Source: Okamejei kenojei (taxonomy: Eukaryota). Taken from it: a stretch of DNA of 64,000 nucleotides. Below the pieces are notes generated by a model. The model was not told where the DNA came from, did no database searches, and saw only the letters and a list, made by a program, of their open reading frames with translations. The stretch lies in assembly GCA_035221665.1 (NCBI GenBank), contig CM069159.1, positions 18,352,001-18,416,000 on the forward strand, given 5' to 3'. Both the position numbers and the translations under genes were made by a program. Of the stretch, positions 8,720-61,482 are shown one piece after another. Each line of letters begins with the position of its first letter. Within the stretch, counting starts at the first letter, position 1.

Positions 8720-9275
8720 ATCCATTCACTCCTATTTCTCTCCTCCCCTTCCCCTTCCAACTACATTCCCTCCTCCAAAATTTGCTACTCTTCAATCCTT
8801 TTGTCTTACATATTTTGCCTTTTAATCTCATTCCTCCTTTGACTCTCAAAACACTGACCTCACCTGTATCAACCAAACATCTGCACAGGCAACATCTCTG
8901 GGGAGAAGGAATGGGTGACATTTCGGGTCAAGACCCTTGTTCAGACTGAGAGTCAGGATAGATGGAGATGAGAAATTCCTTCTCTCCAGTGATGCTGCCT
9001 GTCCCGCTGAGTCCAGCATTTTGTGACTATCTTCGGTGTAAACCAGTGTCTGCAGTTCCTTCATATACATCACCTGCCAGGCGTTGTCCTGCCCCTCCTC
9101 TCTTCCTGCTTTCTTTCCCCCACTTACAATCAGACTGAAGAAGGGTCTCGACACTAAATGTCACCCATACCTTCTCTCCAGAGATGCTGTCTGCCCCACT
9201 GAGTTAATCTAGCATTATGTGTCTACCCCTGAGATGCTGCCTGATGCCAGCACTTTATGCGTGTTTTCCCCCATT
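8720..9275 (+). mobile_element. Longer PLE pLTR remnant with nested palindromic PLE element (about 8886-9068)
   Basis: Pyrimidine-rich pLTR-like tract, then cagactgaagaagggtctcgacactaaatgtcacc and the family 3' arm; inner inverted copy interrupts it. Confidence 0.65.
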
Positions 9276-12963: not shown

Positions 12964-13648
12964 ATAAGCAACGAGAGAAGAAATACTATAAAAGAACATT
13001 GCAATTCAGTGGAATTGAACTGAAAAAAAAGAATGGAAACATTCACTATACAAATGATTACGGATAATCAAATGTGCCCTAGGAGTTTTGCATCCTGTTT
13101 CTTTCCCCATATTCATCCAAATTGTTCTACAACTGGAGTATTTACAAATGCATGCTAATTTCCATTTGATGAATATGTCCATTTTACTGCATTGTAAGCT
13201 GTATTTTAGACAATGGCAACATAACCAAACACCAGGGAATCAATAAAACTAAAATAACGCCCCTTATCAGAGAATTCTGCTTTATGTATACCAAATATAT
13301 TACATTTTAATATGAATCATATTGCTTTTCAATTCTGCATGGAAATCATTATGTCATCTACCATCTGTCAGCTGTGAGTGGTATTGTCTTGGCTCCAGGC
13401 TAGCTTGATTAAACAAGCATGAAAATAATTCTGGACCATTTTCCATAATGTGTGCTTGTATCTTATCCTGGAATATACTATTCCAAAATAACGGGTGACA
13501 CTGACATAAACGTTCTTGGAAAAAGATTTGGGCATCAAGTCAAATTCTGGAAATACTTGAATCTTAGTTCATTGTAAGTTGAACATGGTTGTACAGTTCA
13601 CGAGAAAGGAAAAGGAAAATATGGGCAATTTGTACTTTATTATTTTGT

Positions 13649-13741
13649 CTGAAGATGGGTCTCGACCCGAAACGTCACCTATCCTTTCGTTCCATAGATG
13701 CTGCCTCACCCGCTGAGTTTCTCCAGCATACTTGTCTACCT
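13649..13741 (+). mobile_element. PLE-terminus element with intact minimal hammerhead core and 15 bp TSD
   Basis: ctgaagatgggtctcgacccgaaacgtcacc; flanking tttattattttgtct at 13636-13650 and 13742-13756. Confidence 0.85.
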
Positions 13742-13829
13742 TTTATTATTTTGTCTTGTAGGTTTCTAAACCTGTTTGCAATTGTGATATTTTTTTGTTT
13801 ACTTTTTTATCCATTTATTGTTGTTCATA

Positions 13830-17860: not shown

Positions 17861-18032
17861 AGTAGTGGGGTTGTTGTAAACCTATCTTTGGAGATAAATT
17901 TGCTACATTCTGTAAATATTTAAAAAAAAAGAATTAATGAAAAATGAATAGTAAACCTTTTTGAAATTAATATTTAAAAACATTTTTTGCTTAATATTGG
18001 GACAACAATCATCGTCATCTGTATTGTCTCCT

Positions 18033-18266
18033 TTAGTTTAGTTTAGAGATATAGCTTGGAAGCAGGCCCTTCGGTCCACCAAGTCCGCACTGACTGGTGA
18101 TCCCCGCACATTAACACTATCCTACACACACACTCGGGGCAATTTACACTTATACCAAGCCAATTAGCCTACAAACCTGTATGTCTTTGGGCTGTGGGAG
18201 CAAACCGAAGATCTCGGAGAAAACCCACGCAGGTCACGGGGATCCGTGCGGACTGAACTCCGTACA
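18033..18266 (-). mobile_element. HE1-like V-SINE, 5'-truncated
   Basis: ttagtttagtttagagatatagc...ggcccttcggtccacc...gagaaaacccacgcaggtcacggg. Confidence 0.85.
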
Positions 18267-18809
18267 AACTGAATCTCTACTGAATAACCGCCCAACATAT
18301 TTCCAACTGCATATTCAGTGATTTTCTTTTAATGAAGATTTGAAGAAATATTCTGCAATCAATTATTCTTAAAAATGTCTGCTATTTCCTTTTTCATATT
18401 GTGGCTTCGACATGAATAGGTTGAGAATTTCTGAGATATGCTATATATTCACATTACAGTCCTGGAATTTCATTGGAAAGCAATCACCCAGCATGACTGA
18501 ATGCTTGCTGCATAGATGCTGATGGGTGGACCTGTTCTCATCGCTCAGCCTAAAGCTTGGAGACTCATGAGCCTCCAAAGACCACATGACCTTGCCACTG
18601 TGCTCCTGTGAAGCAGGTTTGGCCAGGAACTGGGACTAGACCTGATAGAGTGCAACTGAGGGCCTGCCTGTTGGCAGGTCTTTATGATCTGCTGGAAGCT
18701 CATGCTGTAAGAAACCCTTTTCACTCTGATCATTAAAGACATTTAGAAATGGAAGGAAAATATTTCAATTATTGAATTGGCAGCATTGCAAAAGATAAGA
18801 GTCTGAGAA

Positions 18810-21720: not shown

Positions 21721-21813
21721 TATAATAGTCTCTTTGTACCTGAATGTGAGCAGCAGCAACTACAACTGCTTGAGCTCAACACCATTCAAGAGACAGCAGT
21801 ACAGTAGTTACTT

Positions 21814-22113
21814 TACTGTAGAGATACAGTATGGAAACAGGCCTTACAGCCCGCCAACTATGCAACGACCAGCAATCATCCCTACACTAACACAATCCTA
21901 CACACTAGGGACAATTTCACAATTTTTACCTAAGCAAATTAACCTGCACACCTGTGTTTTGGAGTGTGGGAGGAAACGGGAGCACCTGGCGAAAACCCAC
22001 ACAGTCAAAGAGAGAACATAAAAAAACTCCATGCAGACAGCACCTGTAGTCAGGATCGAGCCCGGGTATCTAGCTCTGTAAGGCAGCAACTCTATCACTG
22101 CACCACTGTGTCA
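21814..22113 (-). mobile_element. HE1-like V-SINE
   Basis: agagatacagtatggaaacaggcc...caggatcgagcccgggtatc...aggcagcaactctatcactgcaccactgtg. Confidence 0.88.
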
Positions 22114-22217
22114 CCCAACTATTGCATTTACTCACTCTGAAAAATCAAGCAGCTCCTCCTAGATCTATAAGCACCATCAGCAAGAAGAGCAATGGCATAG
22201 GGAGCATTATCTACTGC

Positions 22218-22879: not shown

Positions 22880-23640
22880 ATTGACTCAGATTAGGCAGAG
22901 CAAGTATCAGTGGGAAAACAATGGAGACACACACAATAGAAAGATCATAAGGTTCAGAATGGAGAATAGTATAAACAACTCCATGGTAAATGTAGTCAGT
23001 TGGAGAAGAGCCAGTGTCTCTGAGATTAGAATAGATCTGGCCTGGGTGGAATGGAATCAAAGATTGACAGCAAAATTGCAGTTGAATCGTAAGTGGCCTT
23101 TTAGATGAAGAAGGGTCTCGGCCCGAAACGTTGCCTATTTCCTTCGCTCCATAGATGCTGCCTCACCCGCTGAGTTTCTCCAGCTATTTTTGACTACCTT
23201 CGATTTTACAGCATCTGAAGTTGCTACTTGAGCCTTTTAGATGACGATGTTTCAGCTGATGTCTTGGTACATTTTCACAAGGAGGAAGATCAGGGAGAAC
23301 TAATCCTCCCAAGATGGTGTAAAGGTTGAGAGTAAAATGGAGCATTTAAGAAAAATAGGCAAGGTAGTACAAGTAAGAAGCAGAATTATAATAGAAATCT
23401 CTGAAGATAATTGTGCAAGGTGAAAACTTAAGTGGTTGGCAGCAAACATAAAAATAGTCTGTTAATCTGTAGATATGTGAAAATAAATAATATTTAAATA
23501 ATTTAAGATATTTAATTTAACATTTTAATTAATTTAAGACGTGTGGCTTATCAGTGAACATAAAGGAAATTCACTCATGGAAGCAGAGGATATGACACTG
23601 GTATGAAGTGCATTGCTTTAGTCTTCATTGCTATCAGAGA
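22880..23640 (+). mobile_element. Old CR1 ORF2 interior fragments, interrupted by a PLE element
   Basis: ORF 22881-23108 ..KIIRFRME...SWRRASVSEIRIDLAWVEWNQRL resembles the CR1 post-endonuclease linker. Confidence 0.5.
23105..23231 (+). mobile_element. PLE-terminus element with 13 bp TSD
   Basis: tgaagaagggtctcggcccgaaacgttgcc...gatgctgcctcacccgctgag; gccttttagatga at 23096-23108 and 23232-23244. Confidence 0.85.
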
Positions 23641-23653
23641 CGCAGCAGAAGAA

Positions 23654-23876
23654 ATGTGTAAGAAGGAACTGCAGATGCTGGTTTAGACCAAAGATAGACA
23701 CAAAAAGCTGGAGGAACTCAGCGGGACAGGCAGCATCTCTGGAGAGAACGAGTGAGTGATGTTTCGATTCGAGACCCTTCTTCAGACCCATACATCTCGA
23801 CCCGAAACATCACCCATTCCTTCTCTCCAGAGATGCTGCCTGTCCCGCTGAGTTACTCTACCTTTGTGTGTCCACC
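23654..23876. mobile_element. Palindromic PLE-terminus element with 11 bp TSD
   Basis: Inverted arms meeting at cttcttcagac/tctcgacccgaaac; cagcagaagaa at 23643-23653 and 23877-23887. Confidence 0.9.
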
Positions 23877-24159
23877 CAGCAGAAGAAGATGGTGACAGAG
23901 TCAAGAACCAGGGGGGAGACTTGAGCATGACTGGCAAAAGAACCAAAAGGCAAAACACAGCAAAGCTTCTTAAATCAGCAAATACTGGCAGTGTACTAGG
24001 ACTATCAGGAATGGTCGTGGAAGCTACTTAATTGTAGCAATCTGGAGTGGGATTGGTACTGTATCTTAAAGTGAGGGATTGCAGGAGTCTAGTGAGAAAG
24101 GGGGGAGTACAGATCATCTCATAATTGAGATGCATTATACCAGGATGCATATGTTTGGG

Positions 24160-25929: not shown

Positions 25930-26020
25930 GGATACAAAGTGGCGAGTAACTCAGCAGGTCAGGCGGCAAGTCTGGAGGACGTGGATAGGTGATGTTTCGG
26001 GTCGGGACCCTTCTTCAGAT
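25930..26020 (-). mobile_element. PLE-terminus arm with hammerhead core
   Basis: Reverse complement reads ctgaagaagggtcccgacccgaaacatcacc. Confidence 0.8.
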
Positions 26021-31589: not shown

Positions 31590-32290
31590 GTCACCCTGCT
31601 CCTTTCCCCTTCTTCATACACTCATGTTCCATCCCCATATGCCCCATTAAACTTTTATCTCCCCCCCCCCCCCCACATCCCCCATCTCCTTCCACACATA
31701 TCCCTCAGTCTGGCTTTAAATTTCACTCCTCCTCTTATCTCGTTAGTTAGTTTAGAGGGTACAGCACAGAAACAGGCCCTTCAGCCCACCAGGTCCACAG
31801 CGACCAGCGATCCCTGCACACTAACACTATCCTTCACATGCTAGAAACAATTTGCAATTATACCAAGCCAATTAGCCTACAAACCTGTACGTCTTTGGGA
31901 GTGTGGGAGGAAACCAAATTTCTCGGAGAAAACCCATGCAGGTCACAGGGAGAATGTACGATCTCTGTACAGACAGCACCCGTAGTCAGGGTCGAACCCC
32001 GGTCTCTGGCGCTGTAAGGCAGCAATTCTACCGCTACGCCACCGTACCATTATCTAACATCCATTTGTCTCTTTACATCGCCAGCATTTGTCATTGTTCC
32101 ACCCATCTGTTAATCAAACCCCCCTCAACAGTTTGCACATCACTTGCCAGACTTTGTCCCACACCCTCCTCTCTTTTCCTGCCCTCTCCCTCCACTCCAA
32201 TCAGTCTGTCCCAACCCGAAACGTTGTCTGTCCATTCCCTCCACAGAAGCTACCTCAACCACAGAGTATATTCAGCACTTTATTTTCTGC
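31590..32290 (+). mobile_element. PLE pLTR remnant split by a SINE insertion
   Basis: Pyrimidine-rich pLTR body, caatcagtctgtcccaacccgaaacgttgtc hammerhead remnant and family 3' arm. Confidence 0.65.
31743..32047 (-). mobile_element. HE1-like V-SINE, full length, 6 bp TSD ttatct
   Basis: B-box gggtcgaacccc on reverse strand, V-domain and tail; ttatct at 31735-31740 and 32050-32055. Confidence 0.92.
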
Positions 32291-36379: not shown

Positions 36380-36646
36380 GACCGACTGCCTTCATGCCAG
36401 AGACCCAGGTTTGAGCCTGATCACAGATGCTGTCTGTACGGAGTTTGTACATTCTGTGACCACGTGGGTTTTCTCTAGGTGCTTCGGTTTCCTCCCACAC
36501 TCCATAGATGTGCAGCTTTGTAGGTTACTTAGCTTCTGTAAATTGTCTCCGGTATGTAGGAAGGTGTTAGTGTATGGGGTGGTCGCTGGTTGGCATGGCA
36601 TTGTTGGGCTGAAGGGCCTGTTTCCATGCTGTATCTTTAAAGTCTA
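36380..36646 (+). mobile_element. HE1-like V-SINE
   Basis: gccagagacccaggtttgagcc, ctgtacggagtttgtacatt, tail gggctgaagggcctgtttccatgctgtatcttt. Confidence 0.85.
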
Positions 36647-37454
36647 AAGAACCAAAGAGAGAAAAGCAGGAACAAAACGAAAGGTACTTCAAGCAACAAG
36701 GTTAACACGATAATTATAGAAAATGATAAAGTAATGCCGAGGTGATCTAAATTAGCAGCAGTGTTGTGGAGGTTAAACTCATTGAGTGCATAAGAGATGG
36801 TTTTTTCAGAGAATTTAGATCTGGTGGTGCAATGAGCAAAGGTTAATAGGCTCTTTGGGGCAGTTAGGGAGTCTTTAGGGAAAATTAAATATGGTACTGA
36901 TTTAGTTCAATCTGAAACCAGAATCTTAAATCTAAGCTGAGAAACCTACAAAGTTATGTGACGTGATTTAGTTATGGTAGTTGAGGAAATAATGTTAAAA
37001 AATATAACAGTATATAGATTATGCTGAACGTTGTTTACAACAATTTATTTTAGATATATCTTCTTAAGGTAGTTCAAAGTTGGTCTAGCTCTGGCCGGCT
37101 GGAAGAATTAAAGACAGTATTTCATCATAGGATAAGGATGATGAATGTCAAAAGGAGCGCTGAAGTCTTAACATTTAAACCTTGAGATTTCAACAAAGAA
37201 GACTAAAAGAGTAAAATAAAAAAAACCCTGAGATGAATGAGAAAATACATGGAAATAAAAGAGAAACATAAAAAGGAAAGGTGGAGCAATGATTAACATG
37301 GGGCCCTTCTTACCAAAATTTGAGAAAATATGTATTGATTGGGTAAGTTTAGTCTGGCTTTAGCTTTAATCCTTACAGAGAGAGAGACTGAGGGATGATC
37401 TCAGGCGGTGTATAAAATGATTTAACCTTTCTATGCCCCTCATGATTTTATGCA

Positions 37455-38062
37455 TCAATAGACAGTAGGTGCAGGAGTAGGTCATTCAGCCCTTTGAGCC
37501 AGTACTCCGTTCCTGCCTTCTCGCCATATCCTTTGACTCCGCTATCTTTATCTAACTCTCAAAAGCATTCAAAGAATTGGCTTTGAGGCGCAGAATTCCA
37601 CAGATTCACAGCTCTCTGGGTGAAAAAGTTTTTCCTCATCCCTGTTCTAAATGGCCTACCCCTTATTGTTAAACTGTGGCCCCGGTTCCGGACACCCCCA
37701 GCATCAGGAACATGATTCCTGCTTCTAGCGTGTCCAATCCCTTAATAATCTTATATGTTTTAATAAGATCCCCTGCCATCCTTCTAAATTCCAGTGTAAA
37801 CAAGCCCAGTCGCTCCATTCTTTCAACATATGACAGACCCGCCATCCCGGGAATTTACCTCATGAACCTACGCTGCACTCCCTCAATAGCAAAAATGTCC
37901 TTCCTCAAATTTGGAGTCCAAAACTGCACACAATACTCCAGGTATGGTCTCATACCAGGGCCCTATACAACTGCAGATGGACCTCTTTGCTCCGATACTC
38001 AACTACTCTTGTTATGAAGGCCAACATGCCATTAGTTTTCTTCACTGCCTGCTGTACCTGCC
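37455..38062 (-). mobile_element. CR1/HER1 LINE 3' ~600 bp
   Basis: Tail caatagacagtaggtgcagg; minus translation [33 protein letters not shown] (CR1 RT C-terminus). Confidence 0.92.
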
Positions 38063-38069
38063 CCCTCAC

Positions 38070-39190
38070 TATGAAATCATCCATCAGTTTGTTTCCAAGA
38101 GTTAGAGAATCATAAACGATTGAGCATAACTTTAAGATAAGAGAGAAAATATTTAATAGGAGCCTTAGGGGCAACCTTTTCACAGAGAGGGTGGCAGATA
38201 GATGGAATGAGCTGCCAGAGCAAGTGGTTGAGACAGCTACAATAACAATATTAAAAATACATTTGAACAGATACCTGGATAGGAAATGTAGAGAAAGATA
38301 TGGGTCAGATGCAGGCAAAATGGATTAGCTTAAAGTGCGTATCGTGATCAGCATGGATGAGTTTGGCCAAAGGGCTTGTTTCTGTGCTGCATGGCTCTTT
38401 GATTATTTTGCGGAATGAGAAATTGCCAAAGAAATTTGACAAGTATTTCGAAGCTAGAAGTTACAGAAAAGCTGACAATTCTCGAGGATCAATGGACCAA
38501 AATCGCAAAGACTTGAAAGATTGTCAATAACGGTACTGAATGCATTGGTTGTCATCTTCCAAGATACCATTTCACCAAGAATAGTTCCCATAGATCCGCA
38601 GAGAGCAAATATAATCCTTCCATTAGAAAAGGGTGAGAGATATTTAGAGAGACCTGGGTGTTACTTTGAACCAATAGCGTAGATAAAAATTGGGTCACAA
38701 TGAGCAATTACACAGGCAAACAATATGTTGGCCCTTTGCAGGAGCATTTTAGTACAAGAGCAAAGATTATTTTGCAGACTGATTTTCTCAGCTCCCTGTT
38801 TTCAACTATGTTGGACGTATTATGCACAGGCCTGCACAGTCTCTCCACCCAAAGGAAGGATGTACATTTGAGAGAAGCAGTGTAACCAAGGTCCACCAGA
38901 TTGATTGTTGAGGAGAGACTCACAAGGAGAGACTCACTAAATTGTCTGTATAATCTGGGCATATAGATTCAAAAGAATGTGAAACATAATTTTTACGGTG
39001 CTTCACAAGATCGTTACATGGATGGTGTTTCTGCTGGTTGATGCACCCAGAAACAAGGGTCACAGATGTTGTGAAGAGATGAGATGGTGACTCTTTGGAT
39101 TTCATTCCTTTTCGAGGTCTGAGGAGACTCAATTCCTGAGTACATTCAAGACCCAAATCAACAGAGAGGTACAATATCGCAGATTTGGTC
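38070..39190 (+). mobile_element. Cluster of CR1 fragments (3' end 38070-38400 plus older RT pieces)
   Basis: ggcaaccttttcacagagagggtggcagatagatggaatgagctgccagag (GNLFTERV..RWNELPE); gagagacctgggtg and ggcaaacaatatgttggcc motifs. Confidence 0.7.
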
Positions 39191-39712
39191 TCACCAGGGC
39201 CCGATATTTGAACAATGAGACAACTTTGCTGGTTTACTCAAACCCTCTTGCCCAAGTGATTCACACAATGCTTGCTTTACAGATTGCTTTAATACCCTGT
39301 GGTAGCTTGCATTAATCTGTGAGCAAGCACACCAGTACTTCACAGTCATTTCAACCTTGCAACATTTAAAGTTTACTTTTTCTTCTACCCCCAAGTGGAT
39401 GGCTTCATGTTTTCTGATATTATATTCCATTTGTCGTCCTCACCTATCCACTGAGCCTCTATATATACTTTGAGGAAGAGCATATTTCCTGCTGTTATCA
39501 GGCTATTGGGTACTTTCAGAAGCCAGGGTACTGCCAATTCATCTCTACCTCATTGAGGACATTGGATTTTGTCTACAGAACTGATGCACTGCATTGCTGA
39601 GAATTGTATTCTGCACTCCCTCTTTGCTCCATCTGTTGTAATAGAGGTTAACGATTGGAAATCAAGGTTTTCTCTGTACCACGGTCCATGTAATAATAAT
39701 AAAACGATATCT

Positions 39713-40031
39713 TAGTTCAGTTTCATTTAGAGATACAGTGTGGAAACAGGCCCTTCGACCCACCAAGTCCACAAGGAACCAGCGATCCCCGCACATTAAC
39801 ACAAGGCTACTCACACTGGGGACAATTTACACTTATACCAAGTACACACATCCAAGCCAATTAACCTACAACCGTGTATGTCTTTGGAGTGTGAGAGGAA
39901 ACCAAAGAATCTGGAGAAAACACACGTGGTAACGGGGAGAATGTACAAATTCCGTACACCCATGGTGGGGATCGAACTCGGGTCTCCGGCGCTGCAAACA
40001 CTGTTAGGCAGCAACTCTGCCGCTGTGCCAT
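39713..40031 (-). mobile_element. HE1-like V-SINE with 8 bp TSD cgatatct
   Basis: Full head to tail; cgatatct at 39705-39712 and 40032-40039; inserted among older CR1/L2 remnants. Confidence 0.9.
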
Positions 40032-41179
40032 CGATATCTGTGCTCAACCTATATCTTAACCTATATAATTTCTTCACTTTCCTCACAGTACACATTGGCT
40101 CCCATCTTATTACCATCAGCAAATGTGGATATGTTGCACTTGGTCCCCTTAGTCAAACCATTGATATAGACGGTGAACAGCTGGGGGGGCCAGAGCACCA
40201 AACCCTACACAGCCAACACATCACAGCATTCCAACATGACAATGAACCATATACATTCTTGTTCGGTTTCCTGTCCATTAACTAATTCACAACTTGTGAT
40301 TAGCCCCGATCTTATGTAATTCATGTTTGTTTAAGCCTCTTGTGTGGCAGCTTATCAAACATTGCTGCAACTTAAAAGATTTTACATGGCACATAATTTT
40401 TAAATTGTAATTTTCAAGTGATCAATTTGAAAATGCAATTTAAGCAGCTGATTAGGCTAGGCAGCAATAGTGTGAGGCGTGTGTATGCAGCTTATTATTC
40501 CGATGTTGTCAAAGTTCAGACCTTGCAATGTCACTGCTGAATAGGGAAGAAAAAAAACTTCCCAACGGCGAGCTCTTGGTAAACATCTAGACTTCAATGC
40601 TGATTTTCTGGGTTTGAAACTGCATTCGTGTTTTTTTGCCAAATAAGCAGGCAATCTCTCAGCAGCTGTGATCTTGATCAAATGCTGGCTCATTGTTCAC
40701 TGACTCCTGTTTCCATCTCCCTCGTGTTGAATTTTCTGCCGCCCAGGAATTACAGCTTTCAGAGCTGAAGAATTAACTGTGAACAGGCAAGCAGCAAAAC
40801 AGAATCAAAAGGTGCTGCGCGTTGTTTAAGTCATTATCGGTACCTTTCACCTACATTAGCTTCTCATTAGAGGGGAAACTGAATTGAATTGTCACTGCAG
40901 AAATCCTCAAAACTGACTCAGAGGTATTTTGTTAGAAGTTGCTTTCTAGGATTGTCTGTCACCATTTTGGTTTTCTTTACCTAGTAGTAAATAAAACTTC
41001 TGATACATCCTGAGAGTTTAAGAGGTTTGCCACTGGAGGTGTCACTAGAGCTGAAGAAACTGGAACTATTCAATGTCCTGTTTTGAATTGGAATTGGGTA
41101 TCTGTAAAACACAACTGGTGCAAGGTTTTAGTGAAGAGGATTTTCTGCAGGATCCAAGACAACCCATTAAAAATATTGA

Positions 41180-41440
41180 AGAAACAAGGAACTGTCGATG
41201 CTGGAATCTTGAGCGAAACACAAAGTACTGAGTAAATCAGTGAGTCAGGCAGCATCTCAGGAGGACATGAATAGGTGACGTTTCTGGTCTGGACCCTTCA
41301 TCTGATTGATTATATTGAGGGAGAAAAAAAAACTATGACCATCATTCTGATGAGGGGTCCCAACCCGAAACATCACCTGTCCATGTCTTCCAGTGATGCT
41401 GCCTGATCCGTTGAGTTACTCCAGCAATTTGTGTTTTGCT
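41180..41440. mobile_element. Palindromic PLE-terminus element; + arm has CTGATGA variant core
   Basis: ctgatgaggggtcccaacccgaaacatcacc at about 41347; mirrored arms. Confidence 0.85.
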
Positions 41441-41748
41441 GCATAAAATATTATAGAATAGCCATCAGTTCAAGACCTCCTTTCACCACAATTGCTATCC
41501 TTGATTCTGATCTCAACAAAGCTTTCTGCTTCCTGCTTCCAACTAACCTCACAATAAAGGTCTGAAGTCTCATTCTACAAATTCATGTTCAGGAGGTCCT
41601 CTTGGAAAATATAATTTTCAATGATTCCTCAGCAACTAATTTTCCAGAAGCACTATTCAATGGACTGGAGTGAAAATGGATAAAGGCATAGCCATGAAGA
41701 GCAAGTATGTGTTTATCAAACCAAACTCAACAACTACTCACTCAGCAA

Positions 41749-42062
41749 CGGCACGGTGGCGCAGTGGTGGAGTTGCTGCCTTACAGCGCTTGCAGCGTCG
41801 GAGACCCAGGTTCCATCCCGACTAGGGATGATGCCTGTACGGAGTTTGTACGTTCTCCCCGTGACCCCGTAGGTTTTCTCCGAGCTCTTCAGTTTCCCGC
41901 CACGCTCCAAAGACTTACAGGTTTGTAGGTTACTTGGCTTGGTAAATGTAAAAATTATCCCTAGTGTGTGTAGGATAGTGTTAATACGCGGGGATCGCTG
42001 GTCGGCGTTGACCCGGTGGGCCAAAGGGCCTGTTTCCGCGCTGCATCTCTAAACTCGAAACT
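41749..42062 (+). mobile_element. HE1-like V-SINE, young (CpG retained)
   Basis: ggcacggtggcgcagtggtggagttgctgcc A-box, ggttccatccc B-box-like, V-domain, tail gggccaaagggcctgtttccgcgctgcatctctaaac. Confidence 0.93.
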
Positions 42063-45000
42063 AGCTGGCTTGCAGTTCCACAATGTTGCACTCTCTGAAA
42101 ACAGTGAAATGCTCAACCTAAGCCTGCCCTGATGTCCTCTTCAACAGATGCTATCCACTGTCGGCATCCACAGATTTCTCTTCTCAATTGTCTTCTCAAT
42201 GTTTTTGTTGTTATAATTCTTGCTGCTGATAACATGATGGATTCACTCTGGCTTGTTAATTAGCAAATAGGAATAAATTAAATACGACTCTCCATGTAGA
42301 TTTGCTTATGTCACTTACTGATGTTTTGCCTGAACAAGTACTTTGTTCTTTGCAGACTTTAATTTAATTTAAATTATTTTGGAGAAAGGCTTCTGAAAAA
42401 CATATTTGAGGAATGCAGGAAACTTATTTCATAAATCTCTTTTTAAGTTATTTTTGGATGGGGAGCTAATTTGTCTTATGATGTGGGTGTTTTTGTAATA
42501 TACAATTTTCTTACAATTAATATTTTGGAATATTTGCGAATATTAAATGGATTTGATGCACTGAAAAAAAAAGTAGTTAATGCTGAAATTTGAGAATGCT
42601 CCTAGTCCATTTACAAATCCTTTCATTTTTAATTTTAAAGATGATGCAGCATACATTTAAAAATAACCTTGACTAAATAATGCAGCATATCCTGGACCAA
42701 AATAAACAAGAACTCAAATATGTAGCTTAACTCTGGAATAGAAACAACTTTGATTTAGTGTAGGAAGGAACTGCAGATACAGGTTTAAACGCTGGGGTAA
42801 CTGAGCGGGACAGGCAGCATTTCGTGGAGTTACTTGAAGATCAATAATCTTTGATTGTGAGAATTTAATTTTTGACTTACATTTTTTTAATATTAGCTTG
42901 TCCACCATAAGTTTATAAATGTTAGGAGTGAAAGGAGAATGAGGTGCAAGAGAAATGCACTTAATGACAGTTGATTTAAAGATTGGAAATTCTTTTGGCT
43001 GCAAATTTCAGAAATTCATGCTGAATGATCAAGTCATTCGCTTCCTTTTCATAAAAGTGTCAGACGATAGCATTTGAAGACGCAGAATATTTGATTGTCA
43101 TCTGATTTTAATTGAAGTAACATAATTATTTTTACCTTCCAGAAAATTTTGAGAGGTGGTAAATACTGAGAGGAATTTAGTGCTTACTTTATAGCATTTA
43201 TATATTTTTTACATTTTAAGAATTGATTTAATGATGCTTTATTTCCTCCGCATCTCTCTGTATGTGTTACTGAGGTGCCAGGCGTGCTGTTCTGGTTTCA
43301 GCACCAACATTGCCCCTGGCGGTTCACCAGGAGCTGCATACACACAGCTTGTGGAGATTTCCTATTCTTCGTTTAGTTTCAATCCCTTCCACATCTGTGT
43401 CCCCTTCGGGGCCAAATCCACAACTCAGCTTATCACCTCCACACAGCCGAGGAATTGCAACCTGGTTGGAATAGAAGATTGAATCTCGGGGACATGACTT
43501 GGAATATAGATTTGATGGGGCACATTCAGCACAAACACATTATCCACATAAACACGTACGTTTTAGTCCTTAACACACTTTTAAGGTCTTAACACACAAC
43601 GATTGTTTGAGGCACTCCACCCAGGACACATCTCTGGCTGAGTCGAGCTGAAACAACTTTATGGTCCTGGCCTATTAACAATTTGAAGATAAATGGCATG
43701 GAAGTCAATATTTTGATTTCTGATTTTTGTAATCTTAAGTAGCACTAATTGTGTTTACACAGAGGTTTATGATAGTGGATATGATGTGATATTGCAAGAT
43801 GTATTGAAAAGAATGTAAACGTAAGATAATATTGCCGTGTTTTTTTTAATTTCTGTTGGGAATTTCAATTGGTGTGCTGAATAAACAAGGTGAACATCAA
43901 TGAACATGTATAGACCACTGCAATGAATATAATTGAGGCCCAAGTAGAACTACCTGCAATCCAGAGGGAATACCCTGTTTCCAACCTTTCAGCATTCTGA
44001 ATGACTATTAATGGCAAATGGCATTCATTGGAAGCTTGAAATTGAAATGAAAGCTAAAACTTTAACAACGTCTATTTAAACTGCTATTGATTTGTCCATT
44101 TCCCCCCAAATTTTAGATATATGTTTTCTAGCATTTAAGTATACCCTTACTGCCACTAAGCATATAAATATGATGCTGCATCTTGTAGTCTGAAATTCTC
44201 TGAAGCAAGGAGTAACCTTTGCTTCATATTATATCCAGAAACTTGCAGCTTATTTTCTAAGAATCTAGCGATTATTTTATTGTATTTATTCTACCACCAA
44301 AATTTCGATGTGAAACTGTTTTGCTTTGAATTGATTATATTGCAAAAATCCTCTTTTCCGAAATGTCTGACTCTGCTTCTAAAGGTAGGTCAAGTCTGGT
44401 TTTTAGCAAGTCAAACTCACTTCATTCTTCCTCATCAAATTTTGTTTTTTTGTGTCGGATTTTGCGTTCCACAGACACAGCGGGAAAGCAGAAATTGTGG
44501 AGTATCCCAGAAACAAGTGAATTATCCAGACACCAAATATTAACATGTCTTACTCCATTGCACCAGTACCTGACCTGTGACACTGTGCTCTCAGACATCG
44601 TTTACTCCATGAAAGCTCATAACCTTTCAAGGATTTGTACCGGCTTCCATTATATGTTCAGCCAAAGTAAACAAGCGTGATGTATTTCTTTCTCTCTTTA
44701 CAGAAGACCACTAGACTGGAAGATTAAAACATGTTTTTTTATCATTTTAAATAGATAAACTACTTATTCGGTTACTTTGGTTAAACTGGAACTAATACTC
44801 TAAAAAACAGAGTTCAAATCCTGCTCTGTGATGTGAATAATTCACTTTTTACTCAGTGTTCTCGTGAAATCCTCAAGTTATTTTAACTTGAGTAGTAGCC
44901 TATTCAATTTTTATATGACTTAATTTTCTCATGAATCTCTTTGTTATCAAATATTTTGTCATTCGCAATTTCAGAGTGATTACTATTTGTGGAAAAGCCA

Positions 45001-51527: not shown

Positions 51528-51935
51528 CGGAGTGGAGGTCCTCATCTTGAGAACAGATGCAATGGAGGCAGAGGAACTGAGAGGAAGGGGTGGCATCCTT
51601 ACAATAGATAAAGAGGATGGGAGTAGGTGCAGTCTCGGTAGCTGTGGGAGTCAGTGGGTTTGAAGTTCATGTCAGTCGATAGTTTGTCTCCTGAGATGGT
51701 GACGGAAAGATCGGGAGAGTGGAGGGTGGTGTCAGAATTAGTGCAAGTGGATTTGAAGGCTGGATGCAGGTTGATGGCGAAGTCGATGAGATTGGGGAGT
51801 TCTGCTCGGGTGCACAAGCAGCATCGATGGAGTAGTGACAAAGTAGGTTTGGAGCAGAGAGTGCGCCACATAGTCAATGAAGAGGCACGCATGCACATGG
51901 TTAGGTCTCTAATTTGCTGAGAGTGTGAGGAGTCG
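51528..51935 (-). mobile_element. Penelope-like element reverse transcriptase C-terminal fragment
   Basis: FAINLHPAFKSTCTNSDTTLHSPDLSVTISGDKLSTDMNFKPTDSHSYRDCTYSHP, then after a frameshift CKDATPSSQFLCLHCICSQDE; typical PLE RT thumb. Confidence 0.88.
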
Positions 51936-52249: not shown

Positions 52250-52456
52250 TAAGGAAATGCAGAGGTTGATTTATACCAAAGATCGACACAAATGCTGGAG
52301 TAACTCAGCAGGTTCGGCAGCATCTCTGGGGAAAATGGGTTGGTGACAGTCGGGACTCTTCTTACTGAAAGTGAGTACCAACCTGAAACGTCACCTATCC
52401 ACTTTCTCCACAGATGTTGCCTAACCTGCTGTGCTACTCCAGCATTTTGTGTCTGC
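52250..52456. mobile_element. Palindromic PLE-terminus element (a further arm lies at 52572-52642)
   Basis: gacacaaatgctggagtaactcagcagg mirrored by cctgctgtgctactccagcattttgtgtc; gaaacgtcacc remnant. Confidence 0.8.
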
Positions 52457-53687
52457 GTGAGTTGTACTTTTTGATTGGTTTCATCTTTTGGACCGTCTCA
52501 GGATGATTTGCATCCATTATAGTTCTCTGGGTTCTCAAATGGTTAATAAGGTCTAAGCTGGACTCAAAGAAATTCAGCGGGTCAGGCAGCATCTCTGGAG
52601 AAAAAAATGGGGCCGTTTTGGGGCGGGACCTTTCTTCAGACTTCAGTGCCACAAGAGGTACAGGGGTGCTTGATGAGCTGTTTTGTAGGTTGTTGGGGAG
52701 GCTGTGCATTCCTTTTGCTACTTTTACTAGGTCCGTGTGCATCTTGTCAACGCGATGCAGCATCTTCCTGGATGCTCCATCTCGATTGTGAGTGATCCCT
52801 GCCAGGAGTTGTCACAAGCCAAGGGTGATGTTTTATTTATTCAAACGGACTTGAGCTTCAAGCAGTTTTATGATTATCTAAAATGTCTCCATTGCCTTCC
52901 AGTGGATAATTCGACATCTTAATTTTTGTTTGTGCTTTGTGGAACGTCCCCTCAGAAATTGGCTTCCTGCTGCACCTGATTCTCATGGCTCAGATTCTCA
53001 CTGTCTTGCTGTTCTTTTGTTTCCTTTCAAGTTCATTGACTTTGCACAAATCTCCATTCGTCATGTGGTGCACACATTGAAACCCACGCGACAGAAAATA
53101 GGCCTGTTGGCCAACAGAGTAACACCTGGATGCCTGTGCATTATTATCTGGCACAGTGGTGATTTGAATAGACTTGCAATGCAGATACTGTAAATCAGTG
53201 GAGTCTGCATTAACTGGTGAATGTTGTTAAATGCAGCTCCACCCACTCATCATTGAGGCTTCACACAATATTCTCCAAACGTTAAGTTATTTAACGATAA
53301 CAAACACAAGGGAGGCAAATTGCAGTTTCATTTTATTTTATAGACCTTCCCAATTACATTAAAAAGACCACTTAATTTTCTAAATGGAAGTCTCCTGGTA
53401 GCTCCAATCATATTCAATGCAAGTATAATATGCAAACGATTATCATAGTTTATACGAAGAATGTTTAAAGAAAAGCGACAATTGGTTCATCTCATTTTAT
53501 GATCTCTAGACATCCCAAAGACAGTGAATAACTTAAGTAATCTAGTCAGAGTGCAGATTTTTTTCTTTCTCCCTGTGCAAATCCCCAGAAACAATTGTGA
53601 GATAGCAGGTAGTTTGCTTCAGATAAGGGATATATGTCAACCAGGAGGTTCTCTTGCATTCAGCTGAAACTGGATAGGTTTCCGTTT

Positions 53688-56496: not shown

Positions 56497-57628
56497 AGAG
56501 TCATAGAGTGATACAGTGTGGAAACAGGCCCTTCGGCCCAACTCGCCCACACCGGCCAACAATGTCACAGCTACACTAGTCCCGCTTGTCTACGCTTGGT
56601 CTATATCCCTCCAAACCTGTTCTATCCTTGTACCTGTCCAACTGTTTCGTAAACCATGGGATAGTCCCAGCCTTAACTACCTCTTCTGGCAGCTTGTTTC
56701 ATACATCCACCATTTTTGTGTGAATATGTTACCCCTCGGATTCCTATTAAATCTTTTCCCCTTCACCTTGAACCTATGCCCTCTGGTCCTTGATGCCCCT
56801 ACTCTGGGCAAGAGATCCTGTGCATCTATTCCTCTCATGATTTTGTACACCTCTATAAGATCCCCCCTCATCCTCCTGCGCTCCATGGAATAGAGACCCA
56901 GCCTACTCAACCTCTCCCTACAGCTCACACCCTTTAGTCCTTGCAACATGCTCGTGAATATTTTCTGAACCCTTTCAAGCTTGACAATATCTTTCCTATA
57001 ACATGGTGCCCAGAACTGACCACAATATTCTAAATGAGGTCTCACCAACATCTTATATAATTGCAACATGACCTCCCAACTTCTATACTCAATACTCTGA
57101 CTGATGAAGGCCAAAGTGCCAAAAGTCTTTTTGACCACCTTATCTACCTGTGACTCGACCTTCAAAGAACCATGCACCTGTACTCCTAGATCCCTCTACT
57201 CTACAACACTACCCAGAGGCCTACCATTTGATGTGTTGGTCCTGTCCCAAAATGCAACATTTCACACTTCTCTGTATTAAATTCCATCAACCATTCCTCT
57301 GCCCACCTGGTCAATCGATCCAGATCCTGCTACAATTGTCCACAACCATCTTCACTATCTGCAAAACCACTCACTTTTGTATCATCAGCAAACTTGCTTA
57401 TCTTGTCCTTTATGTTCTCATCCAATTCATTGATGTAGATGACAAACAGTAATGGGCCCAGCACCGAACCCTGAGGCACACCACTAGTCACAGGCATCCC
57501 TGTCTGAGAAGCAACCTTCCACCATTACCCTGTGCTTCCTTCCATGGAGTCAATTTGCAATCCATTCAGCTTTCACTCCTTGGATCCCATGCGATCTAAC
57601 CTTCCAGAGCAGCCTACCATGTGGAACC
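56497..57628 (-). mobile_element. CR1/HER1 LINE 3' ~1.1 kb, RT C-terminal half
   Basis: Minus ORF 56677-57177 ...LQLYKMLVRPHLEYCGQFWAPCYRKDIVKLERVQK...ERRRMRGDLIEVYKIM...TRGHRFK; upstream gtgcctcagggttcggtgctgggccca (VPQGSVLGP) and tttgctgatgat (FADD). Confidence 0.96.
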
Positions 57629-58636: not shown

Positions 58637-59307
58637 AAATTGGAATATGTTCATGTTTGCAAGATGCAAAGCCTTTGCTGGAAATCTAACGGAGTCACTA
58701 CACCAACTTTATGTCAATTCATCAAAATAGTCCTGTAACATAACAAATCCGGTAAAATAAGAAACAACTGAATTTCTGTAAATTGACGCCTATAAATCTT
58801 TTCTTCAACTGCAATTTCATAACTACGTTAAGTAATGAGCTATGGAGATACTTGTTTTAATTGCTTGTTGTTTGTTGGTCCAACAGTTGGAGTCAAGGGC
58901 AAAACCAATGCCTACAACCTTATATTTTGCAAAAATAAGTCATCTTAAATATCTGTATTTTTGAAATAGCACAGTGAAATGGAGTTCAGTAAGTGGAGCA
59001 AACCCACTTAGTTTTTGCCCTATGGAAGGTTCTATTCCATTTGAATGGTATGTCAGACATCTTGTTCTCAAAGTATATATTCCATCTTTATTCTATGGAT
59101 TGATGTAAAACAACCGTTTAAAATCTGTAGAGCATAGAACTTGCATCATATTCATTTTGTCTTTCACATGTTTTTTTGATTAATTTCCTCTCTGCTCCAT
59201 GCACATATGAGTTGAAGCAAGATAAATCAGCATTAGTTATATTTAGAACTTTTCCTCATGGTGAAATGCCAATATTTCAACATTTCCAATATTACTCTGA
59301 TAGAGTA

Positions 59308-59438
59308 GTGTAGGAAAGAACTGCAGATGCTGGTTTAAATTAAAGGTAGACAAAATGCTGGAGTAACTCAGCGGGACAGGCAGCATCCCTGGAGTAAAGG
59401 AATGGGTGACGTGTCAGGTCGAGACCCTTCTTCAGACT
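59308..59438 (-). mobile_element. PLE-terminus arm
   Basis: gtgtaggaaagaactgcagatgctgg...gggtgacgtgtcaggtcgagacccttcttcagact. Confidence 0.85.
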
Positions 59439-59639
59439 CAAGTGGTGTGTTGTGGATCTGCAGCTTTCTAACGTGTACATTTGCCTGTCATTACAGAGTG
59501 TCTTATACATTGAACAGGGTCTGCTTGAGCACAAATACCGTGAAATACCAGGAGTTGGAGTCGGCTACTCTGCTCTTCAAGCTTGCTCTGTGATTTATAA
59601 AGATCATGACTGATTTGATTGTAACGTCAACATTTACAT

Positions 59640-61257: not shown

Positions 61258-61482
61258 AGACAAAAGGACGCAAACTGCTGGAGCAATTCAGCGGGTCAGG
61301 CAGAATCTCAGGAGAACATGGATAGGTGAAGTTTCGGGTCGAGACCCTACTTCAGACTGAAGTCTCGACCCAAAACGATACCTATTCATGTTCTCCAGAG
61401 ATGCTGCCTGACCTGGTGAGTTACTCCAGCACTATATGCCTTTTTGTGTATTAACCATGATCTGTACTCATTTGTTTCTACA
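61258..61482. mobile_element. Palindromic PLE-terminus element
   Basis: Arms meet at gtttcgggtcgagaccctacttcagactgaagtctcgacccaaaac. Confidence 0.85.

Follow-up and report, generated by a model that had tools for sequence, protein, structure and literature searches.

The stretch of Okamejei kenojei DNA analysed here (64,000 nucleotides, hereafter the window) carries at positions 13636–13756 a copy of a short, abundant repeat with a hammerhead ribozyme motif, and raises the question of whether such repeats form a self-standing ribozyme family or are made by another element. An earlier note had read them as a non-autonomous, retrozyme-like family of Penelope origin. Such a family would have its own masters and spread via self-cleaved linear or circular RNA.

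The interval 13636–13756, as first delimited, equals exactly one element plus its 15-bp target-site duplication. The 5′ copy of the duplication occupies 13636–13650 and its last 4 nt (GTCT) double as the first bases of the element, forming a microhomology at the 5′ junction; the 3′ copy occupies 13742–13756. The 5′ strand of helix I (2 bp, G2.2 and U2.1) lies at 13647–13648 and is a remnant of the YCAGT boundary motif described below. It is followed at 13649–13676 by a minimal type I hammerhead, recognized by pattern match and by the published consensus (PMC4209133), whose 28-nt core is intact, as had been claimed. The core consists, in order, of CUGAAGA with an extra U (13649–13656), helix II with 4 bp and a 4-nt loop (13657–13668), GAAA, and a palindromic helix III (ACGU), and the cut site is predicted after C13676. 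Positions 13677–13741 hold the 3′ strand of helix I and the leader of a Penelope-like element (PLE) up to the short 3′ end at +93 (positions within the element are given relative to C3 of the hammerhead; all of these features are on the plus strand). The subfamily of this copy has a pLTR of ~100 bp, and its consensus, judged by eye, is the same as that of cluster 4.

Minimal hammerheads (min-HHRs) were described in the pLTRs of metazoan PLEs by Cervera and de la Pena in 2014 (PMC4209133), and the reading as a minimal type I hammerhead fits the consensus given in the supplement of that paper. The CUGANGAH ... GAAAN palindrome UH core is present at 13649–13676, and the likeness extends to the extra base, the G10.1–C11.1 pair, the palindromic 15.2–16.2 positions, and the absence of loop 3, as well as to the position in the pLTR, the occurrence mostly as single motifs of truncated PLEs, and some close pairs on opposite strands. 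Helix II, with G10.1–C11.1, has 4 bp in all subfamily consensuses, its sole change being a one-sided U-A to U-G; helix I has 2 bp, and an A1.1 to G change retains a U-G pair. These lengths are at the short end of the min-HHR range, as helix I measures 2–6 bp in the published set and also 2 bp in D. virilis (PMC4209133). Among 42 strict motifs found in 1.2 Mb of the genome, helix I had 2 bp in 25, 3 bp in two, and 0–1 bp in 15. The consensus CTGA(A/T)GA of the earlier note stands for the core, with the T variant of N7 being rare and helix I having been left undescribed. A scan against Rfam gave no hammerhead match at E ≤ 1, and three chance miRNA matches fell on inverted pairs. The MFE folds of monomer and dimer were not hammerheads and were no better than those of shuffled sequences (z –1.3 to +0.5), a result that is no verdict on activity; for published min-HHRs, cleavage was absent in monomers and weak in dimers (PMC4209133).

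A profile HMM built from 143 copies lying outside our random genome sample recovered 44 repeat pieces from the window and zero from the reversed sequence, which upholds the previous count of more than 25 copies. Only one of the 44, the copy at 13649, matched the strict minimal-hammerhead descriptor. With the previously proposed pattern and up to three mismatches there were 14 matches, against 0 expected in 100 shuffles, and the near-intact cores reported at 23105, 24891, 25991–26018 (minus), and 41347 were among them. The copy at 23106–23231 (plus) is a solo with tail and a 16-bp duplication, its core damaged at C3, and that at 59307–59439 (minus) is a full 133-nt solo with the long 3′ end, which served as genome query. 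Head-to-head inverted pairs lie at 23655–23879 (long arm minus, short arm plus), 41183–41445 (including the 41347 copy), and 61263–61473.

The relationship to PLEs became apparent in longer copies. At 9058–9229 (plus) the window has a copy in which ~90 nt of the C/T-rich pLTR still precede the hammerhead, and in many longer copies, read upstream, the hammerhead and tail are preceded by a C/T-rich pLTR (~95–330 bp) and this by the end of an ORF. The hammerhead is therefore in the pLTR of a PLE, as in the definition of the PLE min-HHR. At a partial-tandem junction (locus L220), the end of the endonuclease domain (EN) is followed by the pLTR, the hammerhead, and the tail, and then directly by the N terminus of the ORF. 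Because of this junction and of the copies linked to pLTR and ORF, the repeat serves both as the insertion's 3′ end and as the ORF's 5′ leader, and the Penelope origin put forward in the earlier note was borne out. At L220 (oriented 700–1560), a short upstream ORF begins within the tail, and the main frame continues open upstream across the hammerhead, with its first ATG ~165 nt past C3 in a splice-donor-like context.

A young PLE subfamily has an open frame of 776 aa that combines in one ORF an RT (YLRYIDD), a C-x4-C-x2-C linker, and a GIY-YIG domain. The Pfam matches of this frame (RVT_1, E = 1.4e-5; GIY-YIG, E = 0.0015) are both below the curated cut-offs, with the motifs visible, and a search of the PDB gave no match. 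Neptune and Nematis are characterized by a Cx2-5CxxC linker that separates RT from EN (PMC8557442), a definition that the linker of the 776-aa frame fits, the putative clade being read from this linker. Judged by sequence, the repeat is thus the hammerhead-plus-tail terminus of autonomous RT/GIY-YIG PLEs with a Neptune/Nematis-type linker. Copies of this young subfamily (L181:2761–5088 on the minus strand, L182–L186, L189, L190, L192, L195, and L198) are up to 97% identical, and it was possibly active recently. A first look at the genome returned 114,767 candidates for the GIY-YIG query and 14,907 for the RT query (150 scored for each). Among the window ORFs of at least 120 aa there was no intact PLE, only a broken fragment of a PLE reverse transcriptase at 51529–51893 (minus), ~350 bp away from two stubs that form an inverted pair (52250–52462).

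How common the repeat is was estimated from a random sample made up of 120 segments, each 10 kb long and placed at a round coordinate on contigs C1–C42 (1.2 Mb). The sample holds 455 pieces, i.e., 3.79 per 10 kb (bootstrap 3.24–4.33), which extrapolates from 1.2 Mb to ~1.05 million pieces in the 2.76-Gb genome; coverage was 3.8% in 800 kb, or roughly 4% of the genome. Head-to-head pairs account for 133 of the 455 pieces, and against these 455 the sample contains at most 32 matches to the EN end and 2–5 to the RT and the N terminus. Strict hammerheads numbered 42, with 0 in the reversed control, all of a single sequence family, from which ~96,000 were estimated for the genome, compared with ~4,000 in coelacanth and ~9,000 in Xenopus (PMC4209133). 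No shark or skate names were present in the supplement file of that paper that was searched.

Such a very high copy number, with strict motifs at ~35 per Mb (42 in the 1.2-Mb sample), speaks for a retrozyme-like family, as do a small number of tandems of two units that each carry a hammerhead (for example L274, L245, and L247) and the derivation of vertebrate retrozymes from PLE pLTRs (bioRxiv 2026.07.22.740005). The repeat shares with animal non-LTR retrozymes the type I hammerhead, the PLE-pLTR origin, the non-coding nature, and the high copy number (PMC7229834; bioRxiv 2026.07.22.740005). Retrozymes, however, are tandem units of 150–450 bp, mostly with canonical hammerheads, that give circular RNAs (PMC7229834; bioRxiv 2026.07.22.740005), whereas the copies described here are dispersed solos or inverted pairs, have a minimal hammerhead, and end away from the cut site. 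There were only 13 same-strand abutting pairs among the 455 pieces, few of them carrying two hammerheads, and TRF found no tandem array of the element in the window. Helix I had at most 2 bp in 40 of the 42 strict motifs, which is not canonical. Neither a tandem array with a hammerhead per unit nor a lineage apart from the autonomous element, two of the marks of a retrozyme, was found.

The last point comes from the comparison of 167 short and 134 long copies. All seven clusters contain both kinds with matching consensus, and no column was diagnostic of short versus long copies after correction in any of them, with low power in the clusters that have 5–9 long copies. The shared consensus, the rarity of tandems, and a neutral decay of the copies argue against a separate retrozyme family, which we regard as very unlikely; retrozymes are by definition tandem and have canonical hammerheads (PMC7229834). 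The decay was seen in several ways. Core and helix II were both intact in 24 of 171 near-complete copies, and G12 was changed in 47 of 163 (29%). Six subfamily consensuses retain the core, save one CpG position in the oldest, and vary in loop 2, position 1.1, and the tail; where helix I or II differs, the change is a wobble on one side only, and no two-sided covariation was found among the 18 pairs of an alignment fold of 16 copies. It had been proposed that core positions no more conserved than their flanks would speak against a ribozyme. With subfamilies pooled, the core was slightly better kept (non-CpG divergence 6.1% vs. 8.3% in the tail, p = 0.003), which we attribute to having chosen copies with an alignable 5′ end and to heterogeneity among subfamilies; within subfamilies it was not (youngest, 3.8 vs. 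3.2%; largest, 6.7 vs. 6.7%), and CpG decay was 25% in the core vs. 20% in the tail. The absence of a core excess within the youngest and the largest subfamily points to selection on masters, not on copies, and since inserted copies decay neutrally, this comparison cannot serve as a test of ribozyme function.

What stands out is the position of the insertion ends. The 5′ ends were mapped with 119 pLTR-bearing references, keeping the 251 unpaired copies at least 85% identical and dropping weaker ones. Relative to C3, 76 of these solos start at –6 to 0, 20 at –54 to –7, and 28 at –55 or beyond; the remaining half, approximately, have starts scattered inside the element (+1 to +59), which are in part truncation and in part alignment trimming. 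The density of ends drops from ~11 per position at –6 to 0 to 0.4 per position at –54 to –7. A unit defined by cleavage needs its ends at the hammerhead cut site, where we found none of the 251 solos and one of 117 paired arms, so that cleavage-defined ends were rejected. A single one of the 30 5′ ends of long copies (L211) is at about +29.

The boundary has a sequence of its own. Of 76 copies starting at –7 to 0, six were dropped as having probable unrecognized pLTR; in the 70 kept, A, G, and T occupy –3, –2, and –1 in 51, 50, and 57 copies, respectively, and C occupies –4 in 30, with the composition upstream of –6 equal to background. In 32 pLTR-bearing copies, C, A, G, and T are found at –4 to –1 in 81–91%, and the motif YCAGT is common to all pLTR types. 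An extra G at –4, as a cap signature, was seen in 7 of 33, the background level.

Because YCAGT also reads as a 3′ splice site, stubs copied from spliced RNA had to be considered. Every pLTR has a polypyrimidine tract and YAG, some subfamilies have a GT donor overlapping the ORF stop, and in D. virilis an intron ends at helix I (PMC4209133). The donor is, however, missing from other subfamilies, and there is no common upstream exon: beyond –6 the bases occur at background frequencies and duplications abut the boundary. Among the joints listed for contigs of sequencing runs none was GT-AG, and one contig passes through the pLTR unspliced. The spliced-template model was rejected for want of a shared exon, and we give it hardly any credence. 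The sequencing-run contigs do contain the repeat; four of the runs are probably DNA and three are recorded as RNA with possible DNA, and since contigs reveal neither starts and ends nor strand or level, they are not taken as support.

The pile-up at –6 to 0 could also come from a local obstacle rather than an RNA end, the stubs then being ordinary 5′-truncated insertions of the 3′ pLTR. The RT might stall on entering the C-rich pLTR, or microhomology or fold-back at the CAG-T-CTG palindrome might intervene, YCAGT being readable as a palindrome with a 1-nt spacer too. In keeping with this, the number of long copies falls off gradually from EN towards RT, microhomology is common at the 5′ ends of insertions, and the palindrome and stem II offer sites for template switching, inverted pLTRs being typical of PLEs (PMC3846280, PMC8557442). 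The drop in density is nevertheless a cliff shared by subfamilies with unrelated pLTRs, a structural block should halt the RT 3′ of the hammerhead and not just beyond it, and a near-full-length copy (L205) starts at the same 5′ boundary as the stubs. We therefore consider such an obstacle unlikely.

Target-site duplications were detected in 34 of 264 insertions, against 0 and 0 in shuffled pairings, and 28 of the 34 are 12–16 bp long; the share of solos with a detectable duplication was 13%. Three of the 34 stand for a single insertion carried within another repeat: L164, L251, and L270 have an identical stub and the same 14–15 bp duplication, an insertion into a repeat that later amplified. 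In the duplication-bearing copies the 5′ junction is at –6 to +8 in 24 of 34, and the 3′ ends are at +90 to +96 in 27 and at +126 to +130 in four, ~35 nt apart. In 48 of 68 inverted pairs a long arm is combined with a short one. The longer arm has its start at –6 to 0 in 37 pairs and further upstream in two, and 15 pairs have a 13–18 bp duplication (counted without a control). Two independent young stubs (L079 and L175) carry the same six additional bases between the duplication and the start of the element, probably the remnant of a very short inverted arm.

A one-ended tail and inverted arms are standard features of PLEs (PMC3846280, PMC8557442), and the features of EN+ PLEs are present here: the pLTR, an optional tail of 30–40 nt, an inverted 5′ copy, and a target-site duplication. 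With Neptune and Nematis the elements share a single ORF with RT before GIY-YIG, the Cys linker, the pLTR, an optional ~35-nt tail at one end, head-to-head arms, and target duplications; unlike in those PLEs, most insertions here are only the terminal 96–133 nt, with a fixed 5′ edge (PMC8557442, PMC3846280).

These stubs of ~96 and ~133 nt are, in our judgment, likely to be direct by-products of target-primed reverse transcription by autonomous PLEs, copied from uncut RNA, and not a self-standing ribozyme family. The proposal builds on what was observed directly, namely the linkage to pLTR and ORF, the target duplications, the two 3′ ends, the 5′ pile-up before C3, the lack of short-specific variants, and the neutral decay, and the fixed ends shared by the stubs likely mark where the RNA and its copying start. 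The PLE protein would initiate cDNA synthesis within the RNA, at about +93 or +130, in the way observed in vitro for the Anolis element. Duplication of the pLTR would place the same RT start sites near the 5′ end of every transcript as well; cDNA from this 5′ copy of the start sites would run off the RNA end after ~100–135 nt, giving a stub, and cDNA from the 3′ copy would give an ordinary 5′-truncated long insert. A second arm made likewise would account for head-to-head pairs. The RNA itself may start at the A of YCAGT, initiator-like and 3 nt before C3, which would also account for a helix I as short as 2 bp. We take YCAGT to fit the initiator consensus; its other readings, as splice site and as palindrome, count against this one. 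In master lineages the hammerhead is probably kept by selection, as the core is the same in the subfamily consensuses. Any cutting, should it occur, would require dimer formation or assistance by a protein, and the stubs carry the hammerhead as a decaying passenger.

The closest precedent is PAc (Poseidon of Anolis carolinensis; Frangieh et al. 2024, PMC11167929), in which RT begins internally at two sites that set the tail, mainly uncut RNA is copied, and the hammerhead is protein-assisted; the Anolis RNA-seq described there showed no ends at the cut site. PAc and the present element both have the hammerhead at the pLTR–ORF junction and two insertion 3′ ends ~100–130 nt downstream that define the tail, without a pile-up at the cut site. 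They differ in that PAc is of another clade and that the element described here, known from its sequence alone, has the first ATG of the main frame ~165 nt past C3 and a short upstream ORF in the tail. An Inr-like TCACT occurs in a rotifer pLTR (PMC3846280), and an internal Inr/DPE promoter is documented for the Penelope of D. virilis, although its transcription start is 46 nt upstream of the intron and not at the hammerhead, which runs counter to the run-off proposed here (PMC2377424).

A bolder version, which we hold only tentatively and would not bet on, makes the hammerhead both the first 31 nt of the transcript and an internal core promoter, with YCAGT as initiator. Each transcript would present a 5′ RT start that yields a stub of 96–133 nt; the million stubs would then be the default output of Penelope transposition, and cleavage triggered by dimers or protein would be an off-switch that removes the cap rather than a maker of templates. 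What we take to be a 4-of-5 match to the DPE consensus is found at +28 to +32, within helix III.

The kind of ribozyme is already known, and the stubs, mostly decayed, are ordinary in kind; no description of them in skates or sharks, and no model of run-off from start sites, was found in the open papers searched. Their value is that about a million insertions with fixed ends form a natural record of PLE transposition. The fixed ends lend in vivo support to internal RT starts, until now seen in vitro for one element, the stub ends argue for uncut RNA as the template, and the stub geometry predicts the transcription start. Run-off would explain roughly 4% of the genome as by-products of a single step.

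Some further structures were noted. Tandem 66-nt repeats of the tail, from the GAAA box and without the CUGA half, occur at L263:9134–9327, L256:6579–6721, L261:4398–4551, and L089:~1900–2100, probably as template jumps at the +93 start or as a subfamily with amplified tail. An 8-bp stem in the tail (alignment A1, columns 52–59 with 110–117) can form only when the long (+130) end is present, with the +93 end lying inside it; it is a candidate RT-binding structure, nearly invariant and thus without covariation. The window also contains a second repeat family of ~250–320 bp, probably a SINE, with up to nine overlapping matches (1535–1841, 18032–18273, 21805–22131, 31743–32051, 36386–36656, 39712–40033, and 41747–42063). 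The frames at 37950–38324 and 56677–57195 (minus) are presumably 3′ fragments of CR1-type LINEs, which they resemble.
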